Assembly (NCBI GenBank): GCA_964513465.1 | Contig: CAZEMR010000005.1 | Coordinates: 14,948-78,947, forward strand | Direction: 5' to 3' | DNA from: an uncultured Hyphomicrobiales bacterium | GTDB lineage: Bacteria; Bacteroidota; Ignavibacteria; Kapaibacteriales; UBA2268 | DNA: 64,000 bases | Shown here: positions 4,749 to 21,947 of the stretch, piece after piece | Position numbering within the stretch: position 1 is the first letter of the stretch | How the letters are laid out: each line of letters begins with the position of its first letter | The notes under the pieces: generated by a model | Database searches by the model: none | What the model was told of the DNA's origin: nothing | What the model saw: only the letters and a program-made list of their open reading frames with translations | Translations under genes and position numbers: made by a program

Positions 4749-4847
4749 ATAATTATGATATCATAAACTAATAATATTTTTTTATTTTTACTAAAAATTT
4801 CTTATTTCGCAAGATAATAAAGAGAATTTTGTATTAATTTGCGTAAG

Positions 4848-4960: not shown

Positions 4961-4979
4961 TAGCTTATATATAAATGAC

Positions 4980-5642
4980 CTAGAAGTAAATGCCGAGGGT
5001 CAGGGTGTAGTATGCCTTGGCTTCCTCGTCGCTTTCCTTGCCAATCAGATTGGCCTGATTGTATTTGCCCTCGAGATTGATCGTCAGAAGGCCGAGATCG
5101 AGGTCGGCGCCTGCGCCGAGTCCGAACCCAACGCGGTTATCCGTCGGCGAACTCGACAGCGGAATCGGAATGCCCTCGGATTCGTAATCCACCGAGGATG
5201 TTATATAATTATATGTCAGATCGCCGGTGGCGTAAACCCCGATGAAACTGCGCAAAAGATAGAAATTAATACCAGCGCCGATCGGGATAATATTCTGCGA
5301 CGATTTGAGAGTTGTCAGCACTTCGCCGGTTTCGGGATCAGTGACGTAGATATCGGTCTGCGGGAATTTGTTCCATGCGATACTTCCGACGAAAAGGACG
5401 TTGTCGGTCAGGCTCACACGGGCTTTCATTCCGATATGGTAGCCGGCTTTTGTGCCGTCTCGAACGAAATTGCGGGCAGAGTCGTTGTCTTCGAATCTGT
5501 CGCGGTTGTAAATATCATTGACCTGATCATTGGGTGTCGATAGTCCGAGGTGGAATCCGATATCGACCTGGGCATGAAGCCCGAATGCGGGAGCAAGCAT
5601 AAATGCTGCTGCAATGAGGAAAAATTTGATTGATTTGTACAT
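4980..5642 (-). CDS. Outer-membrane beta-barrel protein (OmpA-like/porin-family barrel, OMP_b-brl type)
   Basis: Signal peptide MYKSIKFFLIAAAFMLAPAFGLHAQ. Alternating amphipathic strands. C-terminal aromatic residue (…LGIYF). Confidence 0.7.
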   Translation of the reverse strand: MYKSIKFFLIAAAFMLAPAFGLHAQVDIGFHLGLSTPNDQVNDIYNRDRFEDNDSARNFVRDGTKAGYHIGMKARVSLTDNVLFVGSIAWNKFPQTDIYVTDPETGEVLTTLKSSQNIIPIGAGINFYLLRSFIGVYATGDLTYNYITSSVDYESEGIPIPLSSSPTDNRVGFGLGAGADLDLGLLTINLEGKYNQANLIGKESDEEAKAYYTLTLGIYF

Positions 5643-5803
5643 AAGGTCTCCAAAAATTTATAAACAAAAATAGGTTTCCGGAGAGAAAAGTAAAAAAAAT
5701 TATAAATGAGGCCGGAATTGATGCGTCAATATCTCAAATGCAAATTAATGAAATAATTGTTATCTTGCGAAAAAGAAATTTCAGCATCTATAAATATATA
5801 GGA

Positions 5804-7924: not shown

Positions 7925-8152
7925 AAAGCCTCGCCGAATCCTTCGCAGGACGAAACATTTATTTCATTTAATATTCCAGCAGGGGGCTTTGTCTCGCTGG
8001 ACATTTATGATATTTATGGGAAACGCCTGAATACACTAATCGACAATGAATTCATATCCGAAGGGCACAAAAGTATACGTCTGAATTCGGCTAAACTAAG
8101 CAATGGTATATATGTCTGCGTACTGAAATCAGGTGCTGAATTGAGCATATAA
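7925..8152 (+). pseudogene. Orphan T9SS C-terminal sorting domain (type A CTD) fragment with no start codon or upstream ORF
   Basis: Open frame KASPNPSQDETFISFNIPAGGFVSLDIYDIYGKRLNTLIDNEFISEGHKSIRLNSAKLSNGIYVCVLKSGAELSI* matches the Por secretion tail pattern. An in-frame TAA sits at 7922 and no ATG is present. Confidence 0.6.
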
Positions 8153-8176
8153 GATTGATGATTATGAGATAATTTC

Positions 8177-8216
8177 GTCAAAATTCCCAACTAAAAAAGG
8201 GATGTGGCCGATGCCT
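8177..8216. terminator. Probable bidirectional terminator between the CTD fragment (+) and the Rieske-like gene (-)
   Basis: aaaaAAGGGATGtggccgatgcctCATCCCTTaattttttt. Confidence 0.55.
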
Positions 8217-8263
8217 CATCCCTTAATTTTTTTGATATGCTGCTTTGTCGGTGCCGGATAAAA

Positions 8264-8725
8264 TCAGACGCTTACCAATATGTAGTCATCTTCCGTCGTT
8301 ACGGTGTATTTCGTAAGTGGCTTATCGGCCGGGCCCGCAAGCACGGAGCCAACTTTGCTGAATTTCGAACCACCAAAGCTGACGCATTCGAAACGGTTTT
8401 TGTCGTGCTGATACTCCAGCTCGCGGCCGCCGTGGGTGCATTTGTCCTCAAATGCCAGGTAGCTGTCGGCGTCGTCGCGTGCGATGATCATTTTGTGGCC
8501 TTTGCCGTCGGCCTCGAAGGAGAGCTTGACCGCGCCGCCGGCTTTTTCTAGCGGTTTGTTTTTGGCGAGTTCCAGCCGCAGCTTGCCGCCCTCGTAAGTG
8601 TAGCTGCCCGCTTCGGCGGTGGGGGTGGACGAAGTACCTGTGATAGCCGAACACGAACCCAGCGTACCGCATGCGCATACCGCCGCCGCCGCGCCGCCGA
8701 TTTTAATGAAATCTCTGCGTCTCAT
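8264..8725 (-). CDS. Tat-exported Rieske-like domain protein with a degenerate second cluster-binding box
   Basis: Tat signal MRRRDFIKIGGAAAAVCA. Box I CTHGG, then 15 residues, then CVSFGGSKF where canonical Rieske proteins read CPCHGSxF. The second His is replaced by Phe. Confidence 0.55.
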   Translation of the reverse strand: MRRRDFIKIGGAAAAVCACGTLGSCSAITGTSSTPTAEAGSYTYEGGKLRLELAKNKPLEKAGGAVKLSFEADGKGHKMIIARDDADSYLAFEDKCTHGGRELEYQHDKNRFECVSFGGSKFSKVGSVLAGPADKPLTKYTVTTEDDYILVSV

Positions 8726-8860
8726 AAATTCCTTTCCCTATTTATAATATCAGAATTTTTTGGAAAATAAGGGAGAAATATTAATTTTCAATAAATTTAA
8801 ATATAAATACCGTCCGAAGACGGTATTCTGTAAATGAAATGTTGCTAACGGGTTGCAGGA

Positions 8861-9415
8861 TTATTTGCCCTTATTGGGCTGATCCATCTGCTGGAGCTGC
8901 TGCAATTCTTTGATTTGCATTATTTCCGAGAGCTTCGAAATCTTGTCGAGCGACATCGCGCCGCTGATATTGACCAGAGTGGCTTCGTTTTCCTCGCCGA
9001 CCAGCACGAGTAACTCCTTGATTTCCTTTTGTGTTTGTTTGGCAAGTATCCTCACATTCGAGCCTTCGTCGTTGACCAGCACGAGGCTTTTGTATTCGCT
9101 CATCGGAACTTTCGAAAGGAAATCCTTATAAACTTCGCGGGCAAGACTTTTCTCGCGCTTCAGCTCTTTGTCGAATTTATAAGTCAATACGAGCATTGCG
9201 TTGATTCCGCTGAGCATTTCGTTGACTGCGCCATTTGTGCTGTCGCTCTTCATCATTTCGCCCATAGTTTCGAACATTTCCTTATTGATCAGTACGGTTG
9301 TGAAGCCCTTTTTGCCGGTGTATTTGTCGAACAGGCTGATATAGGGCGAGTCCTGTGCCAGTGCGGTTGCGGCAGTCATGACAACTGCCAGTGCGATTAC
9401 GATTATCTTTTTCAT
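8861..9415 (-). CDS. DUF4252-like secreted protein (the third gene of an ECF-sigma module, Bacteroidetes style)
   Basis: Signal peptide MKKIIVIALAVVMTAATALAQ. Pattern ...FDKY..KKGFTTVLINKEMFE...LVLT...DKISKLSEIM is typical of DUF4252. Position is immediately downstream of the anti-sigma gene. Confidence 0.5.
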   Translation of the reverse strand: MKKIIVIALAVVMTAATALAQDSPYISLFDKYTGKKGFTTVLINKEMFETMGEMMKSDSTNGAVNEMLSGINAMLVLTYKFDKELKREKSLAREVYKDFLSKVPMSEYKSLVLVNDEGSNVRILAKQTQKEIKELLVLVGEENEATLVNISGAMSLDKISKLSEIMQIKELQQLQQMDQPNKGK

Positions 9416-9921
9416 AGCGCTACCTTTGAAATATTAAAAAACTTGGTTTGATATTCATATATAATGGATAATTCTTTTGCGGGTTCAATGCTTTCGTTCA
9501 GTTTGCCGGATACATAGCCCAAAGTCTCAACTGCTTGTTTATACGCAATTTCGGGGTCTTTTGTTGCATACTTTTCGGCAATTACTTCCCCGGATTCATT
9601 ATTTTCGGAATTCTGATTTAAAAAGAAAACACCGAGCATAATAAATGCGCAGGCTGCGGCTGCCGCGGCGAACCACTGGATATTATACAGTTTGCTTAGC
9701 GGACGACGACTGATGCGCGAGATCGTGCGTTCGTCGAAGTCCTCGGATTCGATTCGTCCATCGCGTTGGGTGGTCATATACCGGAACAATTCCGAATACG
9801 GCTCAAGTTCGGGATCGATATGCTGAGAATCGAAATATTCGCGGAGCAATGCTTCTTCTGCGAGCGAGGTGTCGCCCTCGAAATATCTTTCGATTAATGG
9901 TTTAATGCTTGTAGTATTCAT
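9412..9921 (-). CDS. Putative anti-sigma factor (single-pass membrane protein)
   Basis: Overlaps the ECF sigma gene upstream and the DUF4252 gene downstream. Short cytoplasmic N-domain, one TM helix (WFAAAAAACAFIMLGVFFL), periplasmic tail. Confidence 0.55.
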   Translation of the reverse strand: MNTTSIKPLIERYFEGDTSLAEEALLREYFDSQHIDPELEPYSELFRYMTTQRDGRIESEDFDERTISRISRRPLSKLYNIQWFAAAAAACAFIMLGVFFLNQNSENNESGEVIAEKYATKDPEIAYKQAVETLGYVSGKLNESIEPAKELSIIYEYQTKFFNISKVAL

Positions 9922-10420
9922 ATTTATATGCCTTAAGTATTCTTTCTCTGATTAATTTCCGGGCGCGCGAAAGATTGGTACGAACCGCCTCGGACGTCAT
10001 GCCCATTATCTCTGCAATCCTTTGATTGGTAAGGCCTTCGATGTCGCGCAGATGAATGATTATCTTCTGCTTTTCGGGGAGCTTTTCAATTAATGTATTG
10101 ATTCGGTTCATTGTTTCGCTGCTCTCCATTTTTTCATCGGGTCTGATTGTATATATATTCGCATCATAATTCTCCCGAATTAATTCCCTGCGATTCCGGT
10201 CGGTCCGGATATAATCCAGACACAGATTCTTAGTACACCTGAACGCAAATGCCTCGAGCGATTCGATCTCCCGTTCATCCGGCGACTTCTGCCATAGCCG
10301 GACAAGAGTCTCCTGCACAGCGTCCTCGGCGTCGTCGGGACGGCCGAGCAGCCTCAGCGCCAGCCTGTATAATTTATCCCGGAGCGGGACTACCTTATTT
10401 ACAAATTCTTTCTCATTCAT
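9902..10420 (-). CDS. RNA polymerase sigma-70 ECF-subfamily sigma factor
   Basis: Region 2 (DAEDAVQETLVRLW) and region 4 (GLTNQRIAEIMGMTSEAVRTNLSRAR) motifs. Confidence 0.85.
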   Translation of the reverse strand: MNEKEFVNKVVPLRDKLYRLALRLLGRPDDAEDAVQETLVRLWQKSPDEREIESLEAFAFRCTKNLCLDYIRTDRNRRELIRENYDANIYTIRPDEKMESSETMNRINTLIEKLPEKQKIIIHLRDIEGLTNQRIAEIMGMTSEAVRTNLSRARKLIRERILKAYKYEYYKH

Positions 10421-10430
10421 CTTACTTATA

Positions 10431-10457
10431 AGACGAGTGGAATTTGCAAACGTTACA
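10431..10457 (-). promoter_or_regulatory. Candidate ECF-type promoter (AAC-N16-CGTC) upstream of the ECF sigma gene
   Basis: Minus-strand reads tGTAACgtttgcaaattccactCGTCTtataagtaagATG. GTAAC and CGTC are 16 nt apart, about 11 nt before the start codon. Confidence 0.35.
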
Positions 10458-10473
10458 TTCTGTGGATTTTTGG

Positions 10474-11571
10474 TTAAAATGCGAACATAAGCGAAAGGTT
10501 GTGTGATATTCCGCTTATCGAAACATATTCGTTCGATACGGAATAATCCAGATGCATGCGGAATGGGAGGTTTTCGATTTCGGGGCGAATTGAAGCGCCT
10601 GCGCCCCAGTAAGTCATCGGGAATAATTGAGATTCGCCCATTTTCGAGCCATATAAGGATATGCCGCCGCGAAAGACGATCATTTCGTGGGCAGCGGCTT
10701 CTACTCCGAGCACGAAGGTGGGGGCGGGCTCATGCTGGGTCAGAACTGCGTCGATGCCAACCAGCACATATCGTGTGGCGGGCACGTAGACCTGCTCGAT
10801 CTCGCCGGTGGCAGTCGAGCGTGTCGTGTAAACTTCGTCATTCAGGCCGTATTCCATCGCAACGCCGGCCCGGACGGTGTAGGGGATCATCTCGGTGCTT
10901 TCGGCGGGGTTGTTCCACATCATCATGCCGCTCAGGTTCTGTACGGCGACTCCGACGGAGAACATGTCCAATACGTTGAATTTAGTGCCGACGTCGATTG
11001 CGAATCCGTCGCCGTAATACTGCGAACCTATCAGGTTATTAGTCAGATATTTAAGGCCTACGCCGATAGAGGCGAATTCCTGACGGTAGGCGGCCACTGC
11101 CGAGATAGCGTATTGCCAGTTGGAATATTCGCCATAGGAATGTCCCATAGCGTCGCGGGCTTCGAACGAACCGGAATTGAAGCTGTTTATGCCGAATCCC
11201 AGGCCGATGCGGTCGTAGACCTCCTGACCCCAGGCGATTGTCGACTGGGTGCGGCCGAGCGAAAGGATCGAGACTCCGGTGCTGACCATAGGCTCAGGCC
11301 CGAAGAATCCCACCCCGGCGGGATTGTAAAATATTGCAGTGGGTTCATTGACGATTGCAGAATAAGCGCCGGCCATCGAAATAGCGCGTGCGCCCACATT
11401 GCGGAAGAGGTATGCCTCGGCGTATCCGCCGTCGGAAGTCTGCGCGAAAGCAGGGGAGGCCATCAGCAACGCTATAAAAAATGCTGCGATGCGCTTTGAG
11501 TATCGACAAATTGCTACCCGTTCGGCTGTAAGATTATAGCCAAAAGCATTTCGCTGGCGAATATTGGACAT
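10474..11571 (-). CDS. PorV/PorQ-family outer-membrane beta-barrel protein (T9SS-associated)
   Basis: Signal peptide. N-terminal motif LFRNVGARAISMAGAYSAIVNEPTAIFYNPAGVGFF resembles the PorV signature (DARSxGMG...WNPAGLA). Beta-barrel character. C-terminal aromatic residue (MFAF). Confidence 0.5.
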   Translation of the reverse strand: MSNIRQRNAFGYNLTAERVAICRYSKRIAAFFIALLMASPAFAQTSDGGYAEAYLFRNVGARAISMAGAYSAIVNEPTAIFYNPAGVGFFGPEPMVSTGVSILSLGRTQSTIAWGQEVYDRIGLGFGINSFNSGSFEARDAMGHSYGEYSNWQYAISAVAAYRQEFASIGVGLKYLTNNLIGSQYYGDGFAIDVGTKFNVLDMFSVGVAVQNLSGMMMWNNPAESTEMIPYTVRAGVAMEYGLNDEVYTTRSTATGEIEQVYVPATRYVLVGIDAVLTQHEPAPTFVLGVEAAAHEMIVFRGGISLYGSKMGESQLFPMTYWGAGASIRPEIENLPFRMHLDYSVSNEYVSISGISHNLSLMFAF

Positions 11572-11573
11572 TT

Positions 11574-12101
11574 TTACCTCGATACAATGAATTTCTCAGT
11601 ATCCCGGAAATTCGGTCCGTTGAGTATACATATATATACTCCGTTCGGAAGGTTGTAGGAATCGAACCTGTATTCGGCTCCTTCTGGCATAGCCGCGCCC
11701 CGGTGTATATCCTTGACTTTTTTGCCAAGCAGGTTGTATACGCTCAGTTCGATAGTTACATCATAGCTCGCAAGTTCGACTTTAACATAATAAATATCGT
11801 TCTGATGCCTTACCTGCGAAATATGATTGCCTGCAGTCGTTGTGTCCGAGTTCACTGCGTCGGCGTTTACCTTCGAATTTCCTTTACCGGAATTATCAGC
11901 AAATACTATGCCAGGGGGAGTAGGCGGGAGGTACATTGCGCGCTCAAGCAGGTTGCGGGCGTAACTGTTCAGCGGTATAGTCGGCTTGCTCTGGGCGATT
12001 GCCCCGGAGATAGCCGCCACCGCGAATAATATATATATAATCAGCCTGCTGATAGCTTCTGCCATTTTGTGTTTATAAACTATACTATAAATATAAGTCA
12101 A
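11574..12101 (-). CDS. Small secreted protein with T9SS C-terminal sorting domain
   Basis: Signal peptide. C-terminal IELSVYNLLGKKVKDIHRGAAMPEGAEYRFDSYNLPNGVYICILNGPNFRDTEKFIVSR matches the type A CTD. The true start may be the internal Met (MAEAISRL…). Confidence 0.65.
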   Translation of the reverse strand: MTYIYSIVYKHKMAEAISRLIIYILFAVAAISGAIAQSKPTIPLNSYARNLLERAMYLPPTPPGIVFADNSGKGNSKVNADAVNSDTTTAGNHISQVRHQNDIYYVKVELASYDVTIELSVYNLLGKKVKDIHRGAAMPEGAEYRFDSYNLPNGVYICILNGPNFRDTEKFIVSR

Positions 12102-12163
12102 ATTTACAAAATTTTACTTATAGAAAATTAACTATTCAGAAGATTTTTTATTGTCGATGATTA

Positions 12164-13729
12164 TTATTTTTTAGAAAACTTTGATTTCAATTTTTCGATT
12201 AATTCTTTGTCATCTTTAAGATTTTCCATTGCTTTACGCGTTTCCAGACTGCCCTTTTCTATCCCGAGTTTGCGGGCAATGTCGCTCAGCTTTCCTACAT
12301 CCGTCGGCAGCTCCTCACGGTCGAGGCTGCTAAGGTTCTGCTTCTTCAGTTTCTGCTGTTCATTGCGCAGATGCATAGCCAGCTCGATTTTTGGCGAATA
12401 CCCCAAAGATTTCTCCGATTCTTCATCACTATCTTCCGATTCCTCGATATCTTCCGGTTCTTCGTCGGATGTGTCGATTTTGCTGCGAATCTGCGAAAGC
12501 ATATCCTCCAGCTCTTTTTGCTCGAGCTTTTTGAGCTCTTCGGGCGATGGCCGCGAGAGCTTCGGCTCTTCCTCTTCGGGTTCGGGCTGCGGCTCGGGCC
12601 TCCCCCCATGAATACGTTCGGATTTCTTATATGTTTCGCTGGCGCGCTTTGCCCCAGTGCTGGCGTTTGCTTTTGCGCTTTCCAGGCTTTTGCGGAATTT
12701 TTCGCTGCGAGCGGGCTTTTTGGCGATTTTGTTCATCTCGTTTTTGCGCCAGCGGAAATAAAGCAACAACACTATTGCGGCCAGCGCAACTCCCGCCATA
12801 ATTATATAAGTCATCACAGTGAAATACCAGGGCTTTGCCGTAGATTCGATAGGCAATAGCGCCGAATCAGCGCGCGCGGTGTCCGCCGCCGGAGAATCGG
12901 CCGCAAGGTCGAAGCTCATGGAATCGCCGGTGAGCGCATGTATCGAATCGCCCGAAAATGGATCGTTCAGCCGGGCAACATGCGAGTATGCCTCGCTGCG
13001 GAGAGTGTCGTCGTCGGCAATCGGCGATATTTTTATTTTTGGGAATGATTTGATGCCGGTCATTTCTGCGAATTTCTGAGAATATTTATTCGCATTCTCA
13101 GTATCATTTTTAATTGAATAAATCTGGGATAATCCGGCGTATGCGTCCGGAATCTGCGTACCGTTGTTTACTGCGAATGTCAGATTATCCAACGCGTCGT
13201 CCAGCTCGCCCTCGCGGATGAGCAGTATTCCGAGCATTGCCGCAGCGTCTGCCGAGCCCTCCTTGACTGCGCGAACGAGCTGCTTTTTGGCTACCTGTCG
13301 GATGCCGTCCTCGATAGCGAGCAATCCGACCCGGTAGCTGTCCTCGGCTGCCGAAAGCGCATCCCATTTAAATACATCGATCATAAGAGAGCGGGAGTAG
13401 GGCAGCGGCACTGCGGTATAGCCCCGCTTGTCCTTCATTACTATATTGATCTCGAGGTCATCCTCTTTGGTCTGGACGTATACATCCTCGATGATTCCAC
13501 CGCCGCGGGTGATACGGGCCGAATCAACCACCCCGGCGTTATTGATTTTTACATTGACTTTCTTTTTATCTTCGGATAAATATGACTGGAATCCCGAGGG
13601 GATATCGCTGAAATAGATCATAGCCCTGTTCAGCGGGTCGATCTTGGTCCGCACCACCCTGAGCTGGCCGAACGACCTGAGCGGTAGTACGAGAATCGCT
13701 GCAATCAGAATGATGATCTTAATTTTCAT
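12164..13729 (-). CDS. Bitopic membrane protein: periplasmic AMIN-like plus TPR-like region, one TM helix, cytoplasmic K/E/S/D-rich acidic tail
   Basis: Signal peptide. N-terminal roughly 120 aa AMIN-like (…MIYFSD…KVNVKINNAGV…DDLEINIVMKD…). TM helix WYFTVMTYIIMAGVALAAIVLLLYF. C-terminal low-complexity acidic region. Confidence 0.6.
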   Translation of the reverse strand: MKIKIIILIAAILVLPLRSFGQLRVVRTKIDPLNRAMIYFSDIPSGFQSYLSEDKKKVNVKINNAGVVDSARITRGGGIIEDVYVQTKEDDLEINIVMKDKRGYTAVPLPYSRSLMIDVFKWDALSAAEDSYRVGLLAIEDGIRQVAKKQLVRAVKEGSADAAAMLGILLIREGELDDALDNLTFAVNNGTQIPDAYAGLSQIYSIKNDTENANKYSQKFAEMTGIKSFPKIKISPIADDDTLRSEAYSHVARLNDPFSGDSIHALTGDSMSFDLAADSPAADTARADSALLPIESTAKPWYFTVMTYIIMAGVALAAIVLLLYFRWRKNEMNKIAKKPARSEKFRKSLESAKANASTGAKRASETYKKSERIHGGRPEPQPEPEEEEPKLSRPSPEELKKLEQKELEDMLSQIRSKIDTSDEEPEDIEESEDSDEESEKSLGYSPKIELAMHLRNEQQKLKKQNLSSLDREELPTDVGKLSDIARKLGIEKGSLETRKAMENLKDDKELIEKLKSKFSKK

Positions 13730-13833
13730 TGAATAGAATTTCCCCGGGACTAACCGAATATGTAAATGAAGAATATTTACAATTATATAAAAAATATTTA
13801 ATAAAGCAGCAAAAAATATAAGATATTATTGGG

Positions 13834-15192
13834 CTATTTCGATTTTTGGGGAAATGTGATACGATAGGTGGCGCCTTTGCCCGGATGGGAGTGAACAGAA
13901 ATCTCGCCGCGATGCTGGCCGATAATACTGTTCGATAGAAACAATCCGCGTCCGGTGGGCTCATCGCCCGGCCTTAGCGAGAAGTTCGGGTCGAATATCC
14001 GCGCAAGCATATCCTCGTCGAGCCCGATGCCGGTATCGCGTATGCTGATGACGATTTTTTTGCGTTCTCCTGCGAAAACGCCGATATATATAGTGCCGCC
14101 GTCGGGCATGGTGTCGCGCGCATTAAGCAATATATTCAAAAATGCCTGCTCGAGCTGCGGCTTGAATCCGAATACAATCGGTTTTTCGATTGCATAATCG
14201 CGCTCGAATCGAATGCCGTCGCGTTGCATTTGGGCTTCGGAAAACAGCAGAACCTCGTCGATAATCTGGCAAATATTTATATCCGAGGGCTTTTGCTGAG
14301 GCGATGTGCCCGCCAGCTCTGATAGCTTGCGGTTGATCTGTCTCATGCGGTCGAGCTCTTTGCGGATAAGCTCGAATCTGCGTGCGGGATCGCCTACGCC
14401 TGTTTCGATGAATGTCAGATTGCCGTCGATAATATCGAGCGGAGACTTCAGCTCCGAGGCGATCGACGCTGCCAGCTCGCCAATAGAGAAGTAGCGCGAT
14501 GATTGCAGCATCTGCTTATTAAGAGTGCTCAGGCGTTGATTCATACGGGTGATTTCGCGCGCCGAGCGGATATTGTCCACCGCGGCTGCGGCGTGACCGG
14601 ATATTTCGAGCAGATCATAAAGCTCTTCGCCGGGGATTTCATCAGGCGTTCGGGTTGTCAGTGCGGCGAACAGCCCGATTTCGCGGCCACGAAGAAATAC
14701 CGGTATCAGAATAATGTGTTGTGGGATAGTCGCATCGGCAGAAGCAAGATCGGGCACCACACTTGTCTCGCCTTGTTCTATAGCCCAGTCGAGTATGCCT
14801 TCCTCTTCCATATGCAGTATGCTTTTATCCATACGGCTGGCGGCATCTCCGGGGGCCACAGGCGCAATCCTGCGGTCGGCGCTGAAAAAATACAGATTGC
14901 TCTCGGCAATATTCAGATCGCGGGAGATATTCTCGTGCATTCGCGCAATGACTTGCTCTTCCGAAGCGGCTGCATAGAATTGCCGCGCATCGAATGATAT
15001 ATGATGCGGCTGGGGCTTGTCTTCCGGATGGGGGGGGGTGCCGCCGGATATGCTGCGTAAATGCTCAACCTCGCGTTGCAACAGGTCGAGCGCCGACTCC
15101 AGCGAGCGGATGTATTCATCGCGGTCGTGCACGAACTCGTCCATTTTGGCGAGGCCGGAGTGTGTGTTTTTATTGTTGCTGGATTCGGACAT
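13834..15192 (-). CDS. Cytoplasmic sensor histidine kinase with GAF-like sensory domain
   Basis: HATPase_c motifs (IRDTGIGLDEDMLARIFDPNF…GRGLFLSNSIIGQHRGEISVHSHPGKGATYRITFP). HisKA segment (SIASELKSPL). No TM segment. No cognate response regulator adjacent. Confidence 0.8.
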   Translation of the reverse strand: MSESSNNKNTHSGLAKMDEFVHDRDEYIRSLESALDLLQREVEHLRSISGGTPPHPEDKPQPHHISFDARQFYAAASEEQVIARMHENISRDLNIAESNLYFFSADRRIAPVAPGDAASRMDKSILHMEEEGILDWAIEQGETSVVPDLASADATIPQHIILIPVFLRGREIGLFAALTTRTPDEIPGEELYDLLEISGHAAAAVDNIRSAREITRMNQRLSTLNKQMLQSSRYFSIGELAASIASELKSPLDIIDGNLTFIETGVGDPARRFELIRKELDRMRQINRKLSELAGTSPQQKPSDINICQIIDEVLLFSEAQMQRDGIRFERDYAIEKPIVFGFKPQLEQAFLNILLNARDTMPDGGTIYIGVFAGERKKIVISIRDTGIGLDEDMLARIFDPNFSLRPGDEPTGRGLFLSNSIIGQHRGEISVHSHPGKGATYRITFPQKSK

Positions 15193-15200
15193 AAATTAAA

Positions 15201-16136
15201 TCAGAATAATGGTTTTTCGGGTAATTCGCTGAGCACACCGGCCTTTTGATATTCTTCGTCGATTTCGAATTTCAGAGCCTCGATAGCGCTGTCGGCTTCG
15301 TAAATATTACTGTCGGAGATCGACTCAAGAGTCTCGTTCGCCAGATAAAGCGGCGAAAACGTTTGTTCCTGAGTCCAGTTCATATATCCCATCTCGCGTG
15401 CGAACCATTCTGTCATTGCTACTATCACTGCAAGCGTCTGCTCGGCCGATTCGGGCATCAGCACCGGCCCTTCGGCGGCCTCGATTTCGTTCAACTCGCG
15501 GTAGGGGGTATGATGGAAACGTATCGCATTGCCCAGGTGTGCCGGGAGGTTCCACTTTTCCGACAGCCATGCGCCGATTTCGGCATGAGTGCCGCCGAGT
15601 ATTTCGGTTTCCGCCTGACAAAGAGAAAGGGATTGCGAATTTTGTAATTCTCTGATTTTTTTAAATTTATTCGAAAAATATTCTATCATAATAAGATAGC
15701 CGATGTCGTGCATCAGTCCCGCAACAAAAGCTTCCCCGGCCAGCCGGTAGCCCATCTTGCGTGCCAGCAGCCTGGCCGCCGCGCCGCAAAATACGGAATA
15801 CTTCCAGAAATCGCGCACATCGAACGTACCACGGCCGATATTTGCAAAAAATCTTTGAATAATCAGGCTCATCACGATTTCCTTGATCGCATTTGTGCCC
15901 ATTACGACCACCGCAAGGTCGATGGTCGATATCCTCCTCGAAAACCCGTAGAATGGAGAATTCGCCACCCTCAGAACTCGGGCGGTAAGAGTCTGGTCCT
16001 GTTCTATAAGACGCGCTATCTGCCCTGCGCTGGTATCGGGATTATCCAGAATATCCAGCACGCGGGAAATTACATGCGGAATTGCCGGAAGCTCGCTGAG
16101 CGACTCCAGCTTGCGGGTGACCGGACGCTCAAGCAT
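15201..16136 (-). CDS. HDOD domain protein
   Basis: LPAIPHVISRVLDIL…TLTARVLRVANSPFYG…MHDIGYLIM. The 5' end overlaps the fliA stop by 8 nt. Confidence 0.8.
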   Translation of the reverse strand: MLERPVTRKLESLSELPAIPHVISRVLDILDNPDTSAGQIARLIEQDQTLTARVLRVANSPFYGFSRRISTIDLAVVVMGTNAIKEIVMSLIIQRFFANIGRGTFDVRDFWKYSVFCGAAARLLARKMGYRLAGEAFVAGLMHDIGYLIMIEYFSNKFKKIRELQNSQSLSLCQAETEILGGTHAEIGAWLSEKWNLPAHLGNAIRFHHTPYRELNEIEAAEGPVLMPESAEQTLAVIVAMTEWFAREMGYMNWTQEQTFSPLYLANETLESISDSNIYEADSAIEALKFEIDEEYQKAGVLSELPEKPLF

Positions 16137-16908
16137 TATCGAACTCGTACAATTTCTTGCGCATATCCGATACGACCTGGGTATGGATCTGGCATATCCG
16201 GCTTTCTGATACGTTAAGCACCTTGCCGATGTCTTTAAATGTCAGATTCTCGTAATAATATAGCATCATCACCAGGCGTTTGCGTTCGTTTAGGTTTTTG
16301 AGCATATCTGTCAGAAAATTAATCCGCTCTTCGTTTTCGATTTTCGTCAGGAAGTCTTCCTGGTTCATATCGGCTATTTCCTCGAGTGGATCCGTATCTT
16401 CGTCGCCGCCTCGACTTAGCGAGGTTGGCTCCGATAGCGATAGCGAAGCTTTTGCGGCAGCGGCCGCATGAAGGTACGACTGATATTTCTCCGGAGATAC
16501 GTCAAGCTTGCGGCGGATTTCCTCGGCGGAGACCTCGCGGCCGACCTGACTGCGTAGCTCGTCGGATACCGTCAGGTATTCGTGGGCTTTCTTGCGGGCA
16601 GTTCGCGAGAGCCAGTCGAGCTTGCGCAATTCGTCCTGAATTATTCCCCTGATCCGCGGAATGGCATATGATTCGAATTTTACCCCACGCTCGGGTTCGA
16701 ATCTCTCTATTGACTCATGAAGCCCGAGTATGCCGATATTCAGGAAATCTTCGTCGGTAAGTATCGAATTGCTCGGAAGCGTCATCTGATGGAGGACGTA
16801 CTTCACCAGCCAGATGTAATTAAGCAGCAGGGAGTGCTTATACTCCAGCTCGCGTCTTTCTGTATATTCTAACCAAATTTGCTGTATTTTAGGGTCTACC
16901 GGGGTCAT
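16129..16908 (-). CDS. fliA: Flagellar sigma factor FliA (sigma-28, group 3 sigma-70)
   Basis: Region 2.4-3 (YAIPRIRGIIQDELRKLDW) and region 4 (LTFKDIGKVLNVSESRICQIHTQ). Genomic context with flhF/flhG. The likely start is the internal Met MTPVDP at 16908, preceded by GGAAG. The ORF track starts at 16995. Confidence 0.8.
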   Translation of the reverse strand: MTPVDPKIQQIWLEYTERRELEYKHSLLLNYIWLVKYVLHQMTLPSNSILTDEDFLNIGILGLHESIERFEPERGVKFESYAIPRIRGIIQDELRKLDWLSRTARKKAHEYLTVSDELRSQVGREVSAEEIRRKLDVSPEKYQSYLHAAAAAKASLSLSEPTSLSRGGDEDTDPLEEIADMNQEDFLTKIENEERINFLTDMLKNLNERKRLVMMLYYYENLTFKDIGKVLNVSESRICQIHTQVVSDMRKKLYEFDNA

Positions 16909-17015
16909 ATTCTTCCAGTTTTCAAATAAATATAATTCACAGACTAAAATAGTGTTTTGCCGATATTTAATCAAGCTGTACCGAATAAAAATCATTCTGG
17001 CTATATTGTTTCGTT

Positions 17016-17783
17016 TTAGCTTTTACCGCTTTCGGATTCTTCGAACTCCTCCATCGACGGTGGCTCCTCGGGGAAAGGCATTTCTTCCTGATTCATGCTC
17101 TGCTCGGGATATTCATCATGCATTTTGCTGAATATTTCCTGGTCTTCGTCGTCGCCGGGGAAATCGGAAATATCTTCCATTTCGAATTCGGGCAGCATAT
17201 GGCCTTCGAGCTCTTCATCCTCGCCTTCGGAGGATTGTGCTGCGGATTTGCCGGGCAGTTTCTTGCTTTCCTTCATTTCTTTACGGCGCCGGGCTTCGAT
17301 TTCGCGCTGGATATTTTCAAGTTCGGTCAGCTCTGCTTCGTGGCGGGCCTCTTCTTCTTTTTCGAGTTCGGCCTGTTTGCGAAGCTCTTCCTCGAGCTCT
17401 TTCTCCTTATCGAGCGAAATCAGATAGAACACGCTGACCATAGCGATGCCGCCTCCGCCATAGAACAGAAAAAATACGAGAAATACGTAAAACACGATCT
17501 CGCGCGGAGTATAGGTGCCCGGATAAACGAAAAAAATCAGAAACAAAGTGGCAGCCAGCACACTTATATAAAAATGGATTTTGTACGGAAAATTGATTTT
17601 CTTTTTAATCCGCTTTTGCTCCTGCTTCAGCTTTTTTTTCTGACGGGCTTCGCGGCGCTTCTGGCGTTTCTGCTTTTCTTTCTGCTTTTTCTTAAGTTCG
17701 GCATACTCCTTCTTTTCGCGCTCGCGGCGTTCCTGTTCCCGCTTTTTTTCTTCGGGGGTCAGTTGTTTTTTTTCTTTAGCCAT
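17016..17783 (-). CDS. Charge-dipolar membrane protein (basic K/R/E-rich N-terminus, 2 TM helices, acidic C-terminus) inserted between flhG and fliA
   Basis: Low-complexity charged regions flank hydrophobic helices (YISVLAATLFLIFFVY; VFYVFLVFFLFYGGGGIAMVSVFYLI). No domain recognised. Confidence 0.55.
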   Translation of the reverse strand: MAKEKKQLTPEEKKREQERREREKKEYAELKKKQKEKQKRQKRREARQKKKLKQEQKRIKKKINFPYKIHFYISVLAATLFLIFFVYPGTYTPREIVFYVFLVFFLFYGGGGIAMVSVFYLISLDKEKELEEELRKQAELEKEEEARHEAELTELENIQREIEARRRKEMKESKKLPGKSAAQSSEGEDEELEGHMLPEFEMEDISDFPGDDEDQEIFSKMHDEYPEQSMNQEEMPFPEEPPSMEEFEESESGKS

Positions 17784-17801
17784 AATTTGGCAAATCCTTG
17801 A

Positions 17802-18575
17802 TTATGCTAAATATTGTTTTTCCGTGACCGCGATCATTGACGTTAATTTGTCAGCAATCTTTTCTATCGATACACTCACTTCGCTTGCTGGGTCGGTTTC
17901 CGTAAGTAATTCCTGACGAATGATCGACTGACGCACAACCCGATCGTAGGGGACGAATCCCACAAGATCGAGCTCGAGCCCGAGGAATTTCCCCGTGGCC
18001 AGATTCAGCTTAGTCGAGATTTCGTCGGCGTCTTCCATATCAATCACATTGTTGACCAGCATCCGGATGCGCTCCGGCGGCGTCATACCGAGCAATATCT
18101 TGATCAGCGCATAGGCATCGATAAGCGACGTCGGCTCGTCTGTTATAACCACATTGACAAAATCGGCCAGCCTGCAGCATTCGATAACTTCGTCGGATGC
18201 GCCCGCCGGGGTATCTATCAATATAAAATCCATTTCGGTGAATGCAAGTATTTCGTTATATATTTTGCGAATTTCCTGCGGCTCGAAGTCCTCGTGGCGA
18301 CCGGAAGCGGGCAAATCCGCCAGCAGTCTGAAATTCTTCCTGACCCGGAACATTGCGTCTTCTACTGATACATGCCCGGCATAAACGTCGCTCATCCTCA
18401 CTGGCGGCTCGACCCCCATAAGAAGATGCTGATTGGGGAAATTCATGTTTGCATCCCACACCAGCACCCGATGACTGCGGGCGAGCATATTCGCCAGATT
18501 GGCAGTGAGCACGCTTTTGCCGACTCCGCCTTTGCCGCTTGCTATTGTGATTGTAATAGGTCTGTTAATTTCCAT
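17802..18575 (-). CDS. flhG: Flagellar number regulator FlhG (MinD/ParA-family ATPase)
   Basis: Deviant Walker A SGKGGVGKS. MinD-like fold. Immediately downstream of flhF. Confidence 0.8.
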   Translation of the reverse strand: MEINRPITITIASGKGGVGKSVLTANLANMLARSHRVLVWDANMNFPNQHLLMGVEPPVRMSDVYAGHVSVEDAMFRVRKNFRLLADLPASGRHEDFEPQEIRKIYNEILAFTEMDFILIDTPAGASDEVIECCRLADFVNVVITDEPTSLIDAYALIKILLGMTPPERIRMLVNNVIDMEDADEISTKLNLATGKFLGLELDLVGFVPYDRVVRQSIIRQELLTETDPASEVSVSIEKIADKLTSMIAVTEKQYLA

Positions 18576-18614
18576 ATTATTTCATTGTAAATTAAATGGT
18601 CATATTTGGATAAA

Positions 18615-19748
18615 TTATTTGGCTTCTGCAGAATAAAAGCCAATATCATCCGGCAGCAGCAGCTCTCCGAGTTTCTCTGCCGACGCAGGCTCGATATCCT
18701 CCGGTATCTGCTGGCCGGTGGTGAAATACATCAGCGGAATCGGCTGCGATTCGAGCGCCGATATTGCCTCGCCCACTCCCGGGGTCTCGTCCAGCTTAGT
18801 CAGTATCATCGATGTCGGGCCGGTCGCCCCGAATTTGCGGATTACCTCTGCCAGCATAGATTGACTGGCGCCCGCCGGCTGCACGAGAAACACGTTGTCG
18901 GCCGAGGACTTACGAACGTATTCGCTGATTTCCTGCAAATGCTTTTTATTCTGCTGGCTGCGGCCTGTTGTGTCTATATATATAAAATCAAAATTTTTCT
19001 CCGAACGAACGATTTCATCCAGCTCCTCCGGCGAATATGCCGAACGATAGGGGAGATTGGCAATCGAGGCGTAAGTCTCGAGCTGCTCGGCGCCGCCTAC
19101 CTTATGCGTATCGGCCGATACGACAAGCACCCGCGCCTGCATTACCAATCTTGTGATAATGGCCAGCTTAACGAGGGTCGTAGTCTTGCCAGAGCCCGTT
19201 GTGCCAGTAAATACGGCAATCTTACGGCCATCGGCCTGCTGAAGCGGCTCGACGCACCGGATATGCTCTGTGGCCAGCCTCCGTCCCTCCCTGATTGCCT
19301 CGGTCAGATCGCCCGGGTCTGCGCTGCCGCTTATCTTTCCGGCAATCCGGAGCGCGAGATTTTCCTCCATGCCGGACTTGCGCAATGCGAGGAAAATCCG
19401 CCCGGGAATGTCGCCGAGCGAGGCAGCATATTTATATTTCACCGAATCGGACACACCGCTCAGCAGCGTTCTGATCTTCTCGATTTCAGAGAAAATATCG
19501 CCTGCAGTTTTGACAAATGTCCGGGCGTCGGAATGCACCTCAGGGCGCGGCTCTTTTGGCGGTGCTTTCGCAGTTCTACGGTTTTTGCCGGGGCGGTCGT
19601 CTATGGCTGCCACGAGCTCTACACCCTCTCCATTCTCGGAGTCGTGCACCGTGCGGCTGGAGAGCACCACTGCGTCTTCGCCGAGCTCGGACTTGATCAG
19701 CGCTTTGCCTTCGGCGAGCGATTTTGCTTTATATTTTTTAATTCTCAT
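18615..19748 (-). CDS. flhF: Flagellar biosynthesis GTPase FlhF (SRP-type GTPase)
   Basis: G-motifs GTTGSGKTTT, DTTGR, TKLDE. B-N-G domain layout. Confidence 0.85.
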   Translation of the reverse strand: MRIKKYKAKSLAEGKALIKSELGEDAVVLSSRTVHDSENGEGVELVAAIDDRPGKNRRTAKAPPKEPRPEVHSDARTFVKTAGDIFSEIEKIRTLLSGVSDSVKYKYAASLGDIPGRIFLALRKSGMEENLALRIAGKISGSADPGDLTEAIREGRRLATEHIRCVEPLQQADGRKIAVFTGTTGSGKTTTLVKLAIITRLVMQARVLVVSADTHKVGGAEQLETYASIANLPYRSAYSPEELDEIVRSEKNFDFIYIDTTGRSQQNKKHLQEISEYVRKSSADNVFLVQPAGASQSMLAEVIRKFGATGPTSMILTKLDETPGVGEAISALESQPIPLMYFTTGQQIPEDIEPASAEKLGELLLPDDIGFYSAEAK

Positions 19749-20011
19749 ATTGCATTAAATATAATATTCCCATGGTATTTTCAGGGAATCAACAAGAAAA
19801 AACTATGCCAGAGTTAATTCCATTATTTTTGCAAATTAATTTCAAAATTCCGATCCATCAAGTGGTAAAAGTACGTAAAACCATGAAGGATATTATTTTG
19901 AGTAAATATAATCTTAATATAAGATTAAAAATGTGTTAATCAACAAGGTAAATTTGATAAATTTTCGTACCTTTGAGTTTCCGTATTTTACAGAATTTGC
20001 GAGAAAGGATC

Positions 20012-20893
20012 ATGGCAATAAAAGTTGAATTTCCCGACACTACTTTCGAGAACAAACGGCGCTCGCCCGACGAATTTGCGCCAATCGCCAACGAAATCCG
20101 CCAGGATATTATAAAAAGCCTCGTGCTCGCCGGATCCGGCCACAGCGGCGGTCCGCTCGGCATCAGCGACATCATGGCCGTCCTCTATTTCGGCGGATAT
20201 ATGCGCTATAAATCAGACGACCCGCGCTGGAACGGCCGCGACCGTTTCGTGCTAAGTGCCGGCCACATGGCGCCCGTGCTCTATTCCACGCTCGCCCGCG
20301 CAGGATTTTTCCCCGCAGAAGAGCTTTCGACTCTGCGCAAATACGGCAGCCGGCTGCAGGGCCACCCCGGATTCGATATGGAGCTTCCAGGCATCGAGAC
20401 TTCGAGCGGCTCGCTGGGCCAGGGCATCTCGATTGCCGTCGGAATGGCCATGAGCGACAAACTCGTCGATAAGTCCGACCGCCTCGTGTTTTCGATCACC
20501 GGCGATGGCGAAATCCAGGAAGGCTCGGCATGGGAGGCCGCTATGAGCGCTGGCAATTATAAATTGAACAACCTATGCTGGATTGTCGACAACAACGACT
20601 GCCAGATAGACGGCCGGGTGAAGGATGTCATGAGCATCTATCCCGTGGATAAAAAATTCGAGGCCTTCAATTTCGATGTAATCAATATCGACGGCCATAA
20701 TTACGAAGAAATTGTAGCAGCATTCGATAAATTCATCGAAAACAGCAAAGCCGAATCCGGCCGCCCGACCTGCATAATAGCGCAGACATATATGGGCAAG
20801 GGCGTTTCGTTCATGCACGACCAGTTTTCCTGGCACGGCAATCCGCCCAACGAACAGCAGGCCGAAAAAGCGCTCGCGGAATTAAATAAATAA
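20012..20893 (+). CDS. Transketolase, N-terminal (TPP-binding) subunit of a split enzyme
   Basis: GHSGGPLGISDIMAVLYF and GDGEIQEGSAWEA motifs. Start at 20012 is preceded by AAAGGA. The ORF track Met is at 19973. Confidence 0.85.
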   Translation: MAIKVEFPDTTFENKRRSPDEFAPIANEIRQDIIKSLVLAGSGHSGGPLGISDIMAVLYFGGYMRYKSDDPRWNGRDRFVLSAGHMAPVLYSTLARAGFFPAEELSTLRKYGSRLQGHPGFDMELPGIETSSGSLGQGISIAVGMAMSDKLVDKSDRLVFSITGDGEIQEGSAWEAAMSAGNYKLNNLCWIVDNNDCQIDGRVKDVMSIYPVDKKFEAFNFDVINIDGHNYEEIVAAFDKFIENSKAESGRPTCIIAQTYMGKGVSFMHDQFSWHGNPPNEQQAEKALAELNK

Positions 20894-20927
20894 GAAATTA
20901 TGTTGAAATAAATATATCAGAATTGTA

Positions 20928-21947
20928 ATGAAAAAGTTTGAAAAGCTTGGCAAAAAGCCCACACGCCATGGATTCGGCGAAGGACTGGTCGAACTCGGCC
21001 GGCGCCACGACAACGTAGTCGTGCTCGGCGGCGATATCACCGGCTCGGTGATGACATCGTATTTCCGGGATGAATTCCCCGATCGCTTCTTCTCTATCGG
21101 AGTGGCCGAACAAAACGCCACCACAATCGCCGCGGGAATGGCCCTTTCAGGCAAGATCGCGTTTTTCTCGAGCTACAGCGCATTTGCCGCCTTCCGCAAT
21201 GCCGACCAGCTCCGGATTTCCGTTTGTTATAACAATATCGACGTCAAAATCGGCGGCGGACACTCCGGCATCACCGTCGGCCCGGACGGCGCCACCCATC
21301 AGTCGCTCGAAGAAGTCTCCCTATTGCGCGCGCTTCCGAATCTGACGCTCGTCGTTCCCTGCGATTTTGCGGAAGCCAAAAAAGCCACAATCGCCGTCGG
21401 CGAAAAGCCCGGTCCGGCATATATCCGCTTCGGACGCTCGGCAGTGCCCAAATTCACGACCGAGGATACCCCATTTGAGCTTGGCCGCGCTGAAGTATTC
21501 CGCGAGGGCAATGACGTTACGCTCGTCGCCTGCGGACTGCTCGTATGGGAGGCGCTGCTCGCAGCCGAGGAACTCGAAAAACGACACGGAATCCAGGCCC
21601 GAGTGATTAATAATCATACGATTAAGCCGATCGACAGCCTGACCCTTACCCAGGCCGCCCGCGAAACCGGCGCAATAGTCACAGCCGAAGAGCACCAGGT
21701 GCACGGCGGACTCGGCGCAGCGGTAGCCGAAGTAGTCGTCAAAAATTATCCCGTGCCGATGGAATTCGTCGGAGTCAAGGATCAATTCGGCGGCAGCGGC
21801 GAACCCGAAGAGCTTCAGGTCAAATTCGGCCTGACTTGGAAAGAAATATACGCATCGGCCATCCGCGCGATCGAGCGCAAAGACCGCGGATTCAACGGCG
21901 AAGTACGTAAATTGACCGACATTGCCGAATTTTCCGAAGGATTATAA
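20928..21947 (+). CDS. Transketolase, C-terminal (pyrimidine-binding and C-terminal domain) subunit
   Basis: FFSIGVAEQNATTIAAGMALSGK… Directly follows the N-terminal subunit gene. Confidence 0.85.
   Translation: MKKFEKLGKKPTRHGFGEGLVELGRRHDNVVVLGGDITGSVMTSYFRDEFPDRFFSIGVAEQNATTIAAGMALSGKIAFFSSYSAFAAFRNADQLRISVCYNNIDVKIGGGHSGITVGPDGATHQSLEEVSLLRALPNLTLVVPCDFAEAKKATIAVGEKPGPAYIRFGRSAVPKFTTEDTPFELGRAEVFREGNDVTLVACGLLVWEALLAAEELEKRHGIQARVINNHTIKPIDSLTLTQAARETGAIVTAEEHQVHGGLGAAVAEVVVKNYPVPMEFVGVKDQFGGSGEPEELQVKFGLTWKEIYASAIRAIERKDRGFNGEVRKLTDIAEFSEGL

Follow-up and report, generated by a model that had tools for sequence, protein, structure and literature searches.

Gene content and packing of the block

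This study concerns a block of minus-strand genes around flhF, a flhG-like gene and the sigma-28 gene fliA on contig CAZEMR010000005.1 (assembly GCA_964513465.1), which was analyzed within a stretch of 64,000 nt (contig positions 14,948 to 78,947), here called the window; coordinates refer to the window unless a locus name precedes them. An earlier description made from the letters alone, below referred to as the sequence-only reading, had proposed a flagellar regulatory operon of six tightly packed genes reaching from flhF to a kinase gene. The coordinates of these six minus-strand open reading frames (ORFs) match the ORF list, but the proposed end at 13834 did not hold, since three further conserved genes reach down to 10474. 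The conserved unit consists of nine packed minus-strand genes (19748 down to 10474) in the order flhF, flhG-like, X, fliA, HDOD, kinase-like, Y, Z, and PorV/PorQ-family barrel. The features are as follows:

19749..19972, no strand: presumed operon promoter region, AT-rich divergent intergenic stretch between flhF and split transketolase genes
18615..19748, minus strand: flhF, GTPase of the signal recognition particle (SRP) type, 377 amino acids (aa)
17802..18575, minus strand: flhG-like, MinD-family ATPase, 257 aa, enhancer helix absent
17016..17783, minus strand: X, membrane protein, 255 aa, lineage-restricted
16129..16908, minus strand: fliA, sigma-28, 259 aa from Met30; open frame up to 16995
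16129..16136, minus strand: fliA/HDOD overlap, 8 nt, ATGCTTGA
15201..16136, minus strand: HDOD gene, stand-alone HDOD protein, 311 aa
13834..15192, minus strand: pseudo-histidine kinase, cytoplasmic GAF plus degenerate DHp plus HATPase_c, 452 aa
12164..13729, minus strand: Y, bitopic envelope protein, 521 aa
11574..12065, minus strand: Z, secreted mini-protein of 163 aa with a sorting domain (type A) of the type IX secretion system (T9SS); open frame up to 12101
10474..11571, minus strand: PorV/PorQ-family outer-membrane beta-barrel, 365 aa

Apart from the fliA/HDOD junction, the gaps among the six genes named first measure 8 to 107 nt. The 8-nt overlap described for fliA and the HDOD gene is indeed present (...GATAATGCTTGA, with the shared letters ATGCTTGA) and implies translational coupling. 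The true start of fliA is probably Met30 at position 16908, and the public gene call likewise gives 259 aa. The same genes were also found in assemblies GCA_046542925.1 and GCA_048615515.1. The region from 19748 to 10474 most likely forms one nine-gene operon of a Kapaibacterium.

Conservation of the block in two Bacteroidota lineages

A FliA search with one genome per species returned three relatives at 65–68% identity, including a complete 'Candidatus Kapabacteria' chromosome. The part flhF-flhG-X-fliA-HDOD is retained in each of them, and in one the whole block as far as the PorV-like gene, with unrelated housekeeping genes as flanks in each genome. Distant homologs of X (33–41% identity) led to three further genomes in which all nine genes are packed, the gaps in two of these amounting to a few tens of bases at most, and of the complete relatives OW818654.1 carries the nine-gene block and OY762428.1 a form with five genes. 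Overall, five independent genomes with differing flanks preserve the order and the tight packing of eight of the nine genes, and the kinase and HDOD genes are neighbors there as well.

A metagenome scan with the HDOD alignment gave 481 candidate matches and returned 80 loci (numbered with the prefix L), and the window proteins were compared with all ORFs of these loci. Two groups were distinguished, namely group A, the Kapaibacteria type, with FliA proteins 42–69% identical to that of the window, and group B, in which FliA is 35–39% identical. FliA was present in all 24 group A loci, FlhF and FlhG in 21, and X in 20, where it occupies the gap between flhG and fliA; the extra membrane protein noticed within the trio by the sequence-only reading is therefore a conserved gene. 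Among the 19 group A loci with at least 5.5 kb of downstream sequence, 12 contain the kinase-like gene and 13 contain Y, while Z and the PorV-like gene are each present in 10.

Group B loci show the order fliP-Q-R-flhB-flhA-flhF-flhG-fliA-(one to three HDOD)-kinase-Y'-flgF-flgG-flgA-flgH-flgI-flgJ-flgN-flgK-flgL. This flagellar cluster around the HDOD–kinase genes is the strongest evidence for a flagellar module, and with such a counterpart inside a complete flagellar cluster the classification of the window block as a flagellar-type regulatory operon is supported. The extension of the trio had also been taken as specific to the lineage, which is not the case, as fliA-HDOD-kinase-Y together with a small form of X also occurs in this second Bacteroidota lineage (a member of the group B FlgI cluster is named 'Bacteroidota bacterium'). 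Because X and Y are common to both groups, an ancestral module flhF-flhG-miniX-fliA-HDOD-kinase-Y can be assumed, and because group B holds it inside a complete flagellar cluster, this module is regarded as flagellar and not as Kapaibacteria-specific. Judged from the protein sequences, the Kapaibacteria version is the derived one: the kinase has lost its phospho-acceptor His and FlhG its helix, FlhF carries a Lys, X has gained tails and Y tetratricopeptide repeats (TPRs), and the block has acquired Z and the PorV-like gene.

Public names of the metagenome-assembled genomes (MAGs) that carry near-identical blocks conflict with each other (Hyphomicrobiales, Desulfobulbaceae, Chloroflexota, Chlorobiota, Bacteroidota, Kapabacteria), and several of them probably reflect mistakes in binning or labelling. 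For L004 and L006, the name 'Hyphomicrobiales' was not accepted as taxonomy, being overruled by gene content and named homologs, which point to Kapaibacteria. The public record of X names 'Candidatus Kapaibacterium sp.'.

The fliA–HDOD pair

The window FliA exceeds the cut-off of TIGR02479 (FliA_WhiG; 208.7 bits, cut-off 189.6) and carries sigma-70 regions 2, 3, and 4 (PF04542, PF04539, PF04545). The protein encoded by the overlapping gene matches PF08668 over the entire profile (positions 1–196 of 196, E = 4e-65) and has 449 homologs at E<=1e-10, the top 120 of which are 49–72% identical. Its AlphaFold2 (AF2) model, with a predicted local distance difference test score (pLDDT) of 77, aligns with 3hc1 over the whole length (E = 7.5e-10, TM-score 0.65, 316 columns). 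An extra domain in the C-terminal 100 residues was considered and ruled out, since the entire protein superposes on stand-alone HDOD structures. A di-iron site is described for 3hc1 (PMC12075610), and the invariant residues H143, D144, H184, H208, and H209 correspond to the Asp and to all but one of the five His of this pocket, the first metal-ligand His of 3hc1 being replaced by an invariant Tyr113 in group A.

A linkage of HDOD to fliA in relatives was borne out, as fliA lies directly upstream in 68 of the 72 loci whose upstream sequence is long enough. The four remaining loci include at least two ORF-calling artefacts, in which FliA is visible in the protein comparison. A spacing of −8 is the most frequent arrangement, seen in 30 loci; −14 occurs in 7 loci and −20 in 2. 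Three group A loci have fliA-HDOD alone, and because the kinase, Y, Z, and PorV-like genes are missing in part of the group A loci, the fliA-HDOD pair is considered the invariant core. HDOD is also about as conserved as FliA (46–72% identity), whereas the kinase, X, and Y are found at 21–42%.

Group B also encodes, directly after fliA, an HDOD protein joined to a sigma-70 region 4, which shares 37% identity with that of FliA itself, including the YYYE motif. The fusion was seen at L081:8928-10001 and also in L063, L065, L071, and other group B loci. By its sequence, it looks like a tandem fliA-HDOD duplication that has collapsed into one gene. In addition, flgM was not found adjoining flgN, its usual place, in the group B cluster. 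Since the fliA-HDOD link is the most invariant one and involves overlapping frames, since HDOD is conserved about as well as FliA and better than kinase, X, and Y, since the fusion with region 4 adjoins fliA in group B, and since flgM is not beside flgN there, we infer that the HDOD protein may act on sigma-28.

Sigma factors of the FliA/WhiG family are known to be paired with anti-sigma factors, namely FlgM with sigma-28 and RsiG with sigma-WhiG, the latter together with cyclic di-guanosine monophosphate. As in these pairs, a group 3 sigma factor would be combined with a dedicated small partner, the overlapping frames resemble those of typical sigma/anti-sigma pairs, and a ligand-binding partner is plausible for HDOD. 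The HDOD fold, however, is unrelated to FlgM and RsiG. A literature search for a link of HDOD to fliA, flhF, or a role as sigma partner found nothing in the library covered. The same all-helical fold is present in the HDOD proteins SadB (PMC12075610, PMC6543031), PSPTO_4229 (PMC11813219), Cj0248 (PDB 1vqr), and the GSU HDOD protein (PDB 3hc1), members of which influence flagellar motility, although none is reported to be encoded with fliA. SadB serves as adaptor for the proteolysis of the regulator AmrZ (PMC12075610), and deletion or over-expression of PSPTO_4229 alters swimming (PMC11813219); given these two functions, published HDOD proteins fit the role of a regulatory partner. SadB has lost most of the metal ligands, in contrast to the window protein with its largely retained 3hc1-type site.

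FlhF, the FlhG-like ATPase, and the membrane protein X

The FlhF protein of the window has an SRP54-type G domain (PF00448, E = 4.6e-36) with the G motifs GTTGSGKTT, DTTGRS, TKLD, and GQ, and TIGR03499 is by far its best family, at 161.5 bits and thus below the equivalog cut-off of 174.15. Its DTxR motif reads DTHK, and most group A orthologs show DT(Y/H)K, with Lys always replacing Arg (the degenerate L084 aside), whereas group B FlhF proteins have DTYR or DTFR. The Arg of the DTxR motif is part of the composite active site of SRP GTPases.

The product of the flhG-like gene matches the ParA/CbiA/MinD families, and its deviant Walker A, SGKGGVGKS, fits KGGxGK[ST]; the C-terminus reads ...IEKIADKLTSMIAVTEKQYLA. 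The DQAxxLR enhancer helix, which defines FlhG and stimulates the FlhF GTPase (PMC12826062), is absent from the window protein, which has 12 residues ahead of Walker A. As only 39 nt separate the end of flhF from the start of the flhG-like gene, there is no room for the helix further upstream. None of the Kapaibacteria-type FlhG-like orthologs contains DQAxxLR, while the group B orthologs have DQAxRLRE. 

The one-strand order of SRP-type GTPase, MinD-type ATPase, and sigma-28 is the same as in the flhF-flhG-fliA unit of polar flagellates (Vibrio, Pseudomonas, Shewanella, Campylobacter; PMC12826062), and group B has the unit after flhB-flhA, as many bacteria do. The window cassette differs from this unit by standing alone beside housekeeping genes, by an FlhG without DQAxxLR and an FlhF with DTHK in place of the usual DTYR, by X between flhG and fliA, and by HDOD, pseudokinase, and envelope genes in place of the che genes after fliA. 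A degenerate case is the GC-rich (63%) relative L084:7109-13820, whose FliA cluster bears the name 'Chlorobiota bacterium': both the P-loop Lys (GLPGAGVTT) and G3 are missing from its FlhF, the FlhG Walker A reads SGRAGVGKS, and the kinase gene is missing, but fliA-HDOD-Y-Z-PorV-like is retained.

X consists of a Lys/Glu-rich N-terminus, a conserved RIKxxINFPFK motif, two predicted transmembrane helices, a coiled coil, and an acidic tail. Searches of X against Pfam and NCBIfam gave nothing above cut-off and only a weak match to DUF3464. A word-indexed search found 14 homologs and a full profile search of 1.84e9 proteins found 144 representatives, with no Pfam domain in any of those that were checked. 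Some homologs are short forms of 113–127 aa that comprise the core of two transmembrane helices alone; they match the flhG-fliA gap of three group A loci with 43–44% identity and, weakly (E about 1e-4), three group B loci. In group B, this gap (250–320 nt) contains a conserved ORF of 72–95 aa with two transmembrane helices (mini X) in nearly all loci examined. The long Lys/Glu-rich and acidic tails distinguish the derived X from the mini form of group B. Among long X-like proteins a Rosetta-stone fusion was suspected, but the Pfam scan revealed no domains and the proteins merely have an additional pair of transmembrane helices. A PDB sequence search with profiles of X and Y returned only generic TPR or noise matches.

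Like FipA, HubP, and FimV (PMC11620751, PMC12826062), X and Y are membrane proteins whose cytoplasmic parts are charged or form coiled coils and whose genes accompany flhF and flhG, and HubP and FimV share with Y a periplasmic domain, one transmembrane helix, and a long acidic cytoplasmic region. No relation in sequence was detected, as X and Y lack DUF2802, LysM, and the FimV motif, and a corresponding role would follow from position only. FipA in particular has a single transmembrane helix and a DUF2802 coiled coil, so that X with its two helices and no DUF2802 is an analogue by position only.

The GAF kinase-like protein

The sequence-only reading had assigned a GAF histidine kinase to the last of its six genes. 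Pfam confirms the domains GAF, HisKA, and HATPase_c, but the phospho-acceptor His is replaced by Ser (ASELKSPL instead of SHELRTPL). None of the 17 Kapaibacteria-type orthologs has this His, the residue being Arg, Ala, Asp, Lys, Met, Ile, or Asn in the other group A proteins, while all group B orthologs read AHEIKNPL. The ATP boxes of the window protein (LLNARD, DTGIG, GRGLFL) are mostly intact, with N box and G1 kept. Many group A orthologs have lost the N-box Asn or G2, in contrast to the canonical N, G1, and G2 boxes of group B, and the identity among orthologs is just 21–40%. From these motifs, the protein may still bind ATP, yet its sequence indicates that it cannot autophosphorylate on the canonical His. 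The search for a partner response regulator that had been recommended is therefore probably pointless, and signaling by binding instead of phosphotransfer is proposed. The expected linkage of the kinase gene downstream of HDOD was recovered, as it follows in 49 of 61 loci.

The best NCBIfam match of the pseudokinase is AtoS. According to a review, E. coli MinD represses fliA via AtoS (PMC12826062); the presence of a MinD-like ATPase, an AtoS-like protein, and fliA in one block parallels this, which may be coincidental.

Y, Z, the PorV-like barrel, and the T9SS

Y, for which 18 full-length homologs were found, has no match in Pfam or NCBIfam. The AF2 model shows a signal/anchor, a beta-sandwich (residues 23–120), three TPRs (127–224), a disordered linker, a transmembrane helix, and a helical charged cytoplasmic tail, with pLDDT >90 for residues 23–224. 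The last 80 residues are conserved and end in the motif (K/R)xLGIEKGSLE. In relatives, Y has about 545 aa, Z about 150 aa, and the PorV-like protein about 365 aa. The group B protein encoded after the kinase, Y', has the layout of Y minus the TPRs; its N-domain aligns with that of Y (hhalign probability 84%, E = 8e-6) and its C-terminus reads (K/R)KLGVGxGELE.

An order of N-terminal beta-sandwich and TPRs as in the Y model is also found in PflA, a component of the motor scaffold of Campylobacter and Helicobacter (PDB 9HMF; PMC12222027). This bears on the alternative that HDOD, the kinase-like protein, and Y are flagellar and co-expressed with sigma-28 but have their target in the basal body, the motor, or the FlhF/FlhG switch, where they might serve, for example, as a checkpoint or brake on assembly. 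Y would then form a scaffold or landmark in the periplasm, and HDOD would be a sensor or an enzyme that depends on a metal or ligand. We consider this alternative possible but doubtful. It would agree with the best Foldseek match of Y, 9hmf_K from the C. jejuni motor periplasmic scaffold (E = 1.4e-5), with the position of Y' directly ahead of the rod and ring genes flgF-G-A-H-I in group B, with the largely intact metal pocket of HDOD, and with the fact that the membrane landmarks FipA, HubP, and FimV are known partners of FlhF (PMC11620751, PMC12826062). The TM-score of the Foldseek match, however, is 0.17, and all other matches are generic TPR proteins; PflA contains 16 TPRs compared to three in Y and lacks the transmembrane helix and the cytoplasmic tail, so the likeness may be generic. 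Moreover, the tightest and most invariant link is that of fliA and HDOD through overlapping codons and not one of HDOD with a structural gene, and the fusion of HDOD with a region 4 of the FliA type speaks for the sigma factor. Both observations are in line with the preferred explanation, an action of HDOD on sigma-28.

A short, variable linker joins the signal peptide of Z to a C-terminal T9SS sorting domain of type A (TIGR04183, score 30.9, cut-off 23), and the public gene call of Z has 163 aa. Across 12 orthologs, the sorting domain alone is well conserved. The PorV-like gene starts 2 nt past the end of Z. Its earlier designation holds at the level of the family: the product matches NF033709 (PorV_fam) over profile positions 10–326 of 326 with 85.8 bits, just below the cut-off of 90, and PorQ with 53.8, which makes it by sequence a family-level relative that is neither canonical PorV nor PorQ. 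Orthologs occur in most relatives (44–61% identity, 38% in L084), always directly after Z. The pair resembles T9SS cargo and the PorV shuttle or the PorV/PorQ paralogs of Bacteroidota in combining a sorting domain with an adjoining PorV/PorQ-family barrel; it differs in that Z has nearly no passenger and that the pair sits in a flagellar regulatory operon.

Of the four T9SS sorting domains that had been claimed for the window, three were confirmed, all of type A: Z itself (11574-12101), a 1301-aa protein at 53778-57683 (TIGR04183 score 30.3), and a 234-aa protein at 61857-62561 (score 32.9). No fourth domain was found, even when a home-made hidden Markov model of the sorting domain was run over the window. 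Genes of the T9SS type are also part of the conserved block itself, as Z and the PorV-like barrel close it and terminate it in about half of the Kapaibacteria-type loci. A T9SS is very likely present in the window organism. The CTD protein and its 333-aa neighbor at 61857-63559 were considered as a second Z/PorV-like pair and dismissed, as no similarity was seen. A 574-aa protein at 34807-36531 (minus strand) matches T9SS PorE in its central PD40/propeller part only (111 bits, cut-off 600).

Transcription signals and flanking genes

Upstream of flhF, neither a sigma-54 nor a sigma-28 consensus was found in the window and its relatives. Bacteroidota-type TAnnTTTG boxes are absent from this place in the window, although about half of the Kapaibacteria-type relatives have them, and a motif search in relatives (sigma-54, sigma-28, Bacteroidota −7) that covered the sequence ahead of flhF and fliA yielded only scattered TAnnTTTG boxes. 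A generic sigma-70/terminator scan of 8000-20500 gave neither a convincing internal terminator nor a usable promoter call, and an Rfam scan of the window found zero riboswitches or other RNA families.

The split transketolase genes (N and C subunits) lie at 19973-21947 on the plus strand, divergent to flhF, and a transketolase neighborhood of flhF was also seen in L006, L020, and L022. The PorV-like gene is followed directly by genes for an extracytoplasmic function (ECF) sigma factor, a 169-aa protein, and a DUF4252 protein, all on its strand (8861-10420, minus strand); this trio is not kept beside the block in relatives. A gene with DUF4041 and T5orf172/MUG113 (GIY-YIG-like) domains at 3444-4748 (minus strand) is located in a patch of low GC content (0.40 at 4001-6000); a mobile or defence function is possible.

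Evidence for and against a flagellum, and alternative explanations

Flagellar genes are reported for some Kapabacteria and for Ignavibacterium (PMC7509429, PMC6338057, PMC3362086), and unclustered flagellar and chemotaxis genes have been reported for Kapabacteria Ch6 and Ca. Thermonerobacter (PMC7509429, PMC6338057). In the gene table of the latter, contig 1000104 lists transketolase N, a hypothetical protein, FlhF, a MinD-like ATPase, a hypothetical protein, and a sigma factor, whereas FliD, FliS, FliE, FliK, MotA, FlgL, and FlgN are found on other contigs. Ca. Thermonerobacter therefore keeps the stand-alone cassette of the window near transketolase, with the structural genes elsewhere. Chemotaxis-type genes were observed less than 10 kb from the cassette in two Kapaibacteria-type genomes, namely a receiver-domain gene, a weak CheX match, and a PAS kinase at L007:19137-20714 and a CheW-CZB protein at L010:18046-18852.

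Several observations weigh against a flagellar circuit centered on sigma-28 and HDOD. Adjacency and coupling of fliA and HDOD are also compatible with simple co-expression. Among the 19 group A loci, the kinase is missing in seven, Y in six, and Z or the PorV-like gene in nine, so none of these genes is indispensable beside the core. The recommended scan for sigma-28 promoters, performed on the window only, gave one match (TAAA-N14-16-CCGATA; consensus TAAA-N15-GCCGATAA) compared to 0.92 expected and is uninformative. Ca. Thermonerobacter has no annotated HDOD gene after the sigma gene. Beyond the block, about 50 larger ORFs scanned in the window encode housekeeping, envelope, or unassigned proteins with no other flagellar or chemotaxis gene among them, and neither an extension of the source contig on both sides nor the rest of the source contigs contributed anything flagellar. 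Searches with 13 group B flagellar proteins against 547 kb of group A loci gave zero hits, where a rough estimate predicts about one by chance. Finally, a paddy-soil study found flagellar assembly genes to be absent from all Bacteroidota MAGs, including Ca. Kapabacteria, except Ignavibacteriales (PMC10576277).

That the window organism has no flagella and uses the block otherwise is, in our estimate, rather unlikely. In its most concrete form, this alternative states that the structural genes were lost and that FlhF, FlhG, sigma-28, HDOD, Y, Z, and the PorV-like protein now serve a T9SS-linked envelope structure, which we likewise regard as unlikely. It would account for the derived state of FlhG, FlhF, and kinase, for the sorting-domain gene and the PorV-family barrel added to the same block, for the lack of flagellar genes in the 547 kb around the cassettes and in the Kapabacteria MAGs mentioned above, and for L084, where the P-loop of FlhF is destroyed and fliA-HDOD-Y-Z-PorV is still kept. 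FliA/WhiG-family sigma factors are also known to drive non-flagellar programs in Streptomyces and Chlamydia. Yet the same stand-alone cassette is found in the flagellated Thermonerobacter, the absence of hits in the flanks is close to chance for dispersed flagellar genes, incomplete MAGs and KEGG-module calls are weak evidence of absence, and the G motifs of FlhF as well as the Walker A of FlhG are intact in the window. The still more specific proposal that the nine-gene Kapaibacteria as such are flagellum-free, with the FlhF/FlhG-type switch, sigma-28, HDOD, pseudokinase, and Y-Z-PorV-like genes positioning or regulating a T9SS-linked surface structure, appears quite unlikely as well; if true, it would represent a placement-and-timing circuit that has outlived its flagellum and been rewired to another secretion machine.

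It is highly improbable that the block is a relic that is decaying and no longer has a function. Catalytic motifs are eroded in the kinase and, in some members, in FlhF and FlhG, which would be expected of a relic, but many genomes that have diverged to 25–60% identity have all nine frames intact, gene order and overlapping codons are preserved, and HDOD, FliA, and the PorV-like protein are 44–72% identical across the class.

Proposed mechanism and biological meaning

The explanation that we favor, and to which we give about an even chance of being correct, is that the operon controls flagellar placement and number through FlhF and the FlhG-like ATPase and late flagellar transcription through sigma-28, with the following roles for the other proteins. 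HDOD would be made in step with sigma-28 and act on it post-translationally by holding, releasing, or handing over the sigma factor, as FlgM or RsiG do elsewhere. The GAF protein and Y would tune HDOD and sigma-28 according to a cytoplasmic ligand and to the state of the envelope or basal body, while X and perhaps the cytoplasmic tail of Y would be membrane partners of FlhF and FlhG. Position and architecture suggest these roles of the pseudokinase and Y as inputs and of X and the Y tail as membrane partners. In the Kapaibacteria, the circuit would have been rewired by a pseudokinase, an FlhG without helix, an FlhF with Lys, an expanded X, the TPRs of Y, and the appended outer-membrane pair.

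The case as a whole, built on sequences and gene order of uncultured organisms, provides testable leads, of which the fliA–HDOD coupling is the most valuable one. Control of sigma-28 is textbook biology built on the secretion of FlgM, and in two deep Bacteroidota lineages, with at least 68 loci retrieved, fliA is hard-wired to HDOD instead. For HDOD, a domain with little established biochemistry, a partnership with sigma-28, if real, would provide a concrete function and define a new mechanism of sigma control. The physical link between flagellar regulators and T9SS-type genes has not been reported previously. With its missing helix, its Lys in the active site of FlhF, and its added membrane protein, the Kapaibacteria version may furthermore be viewed as a natural rewiring experiment on the FlhF–FlhG switch.

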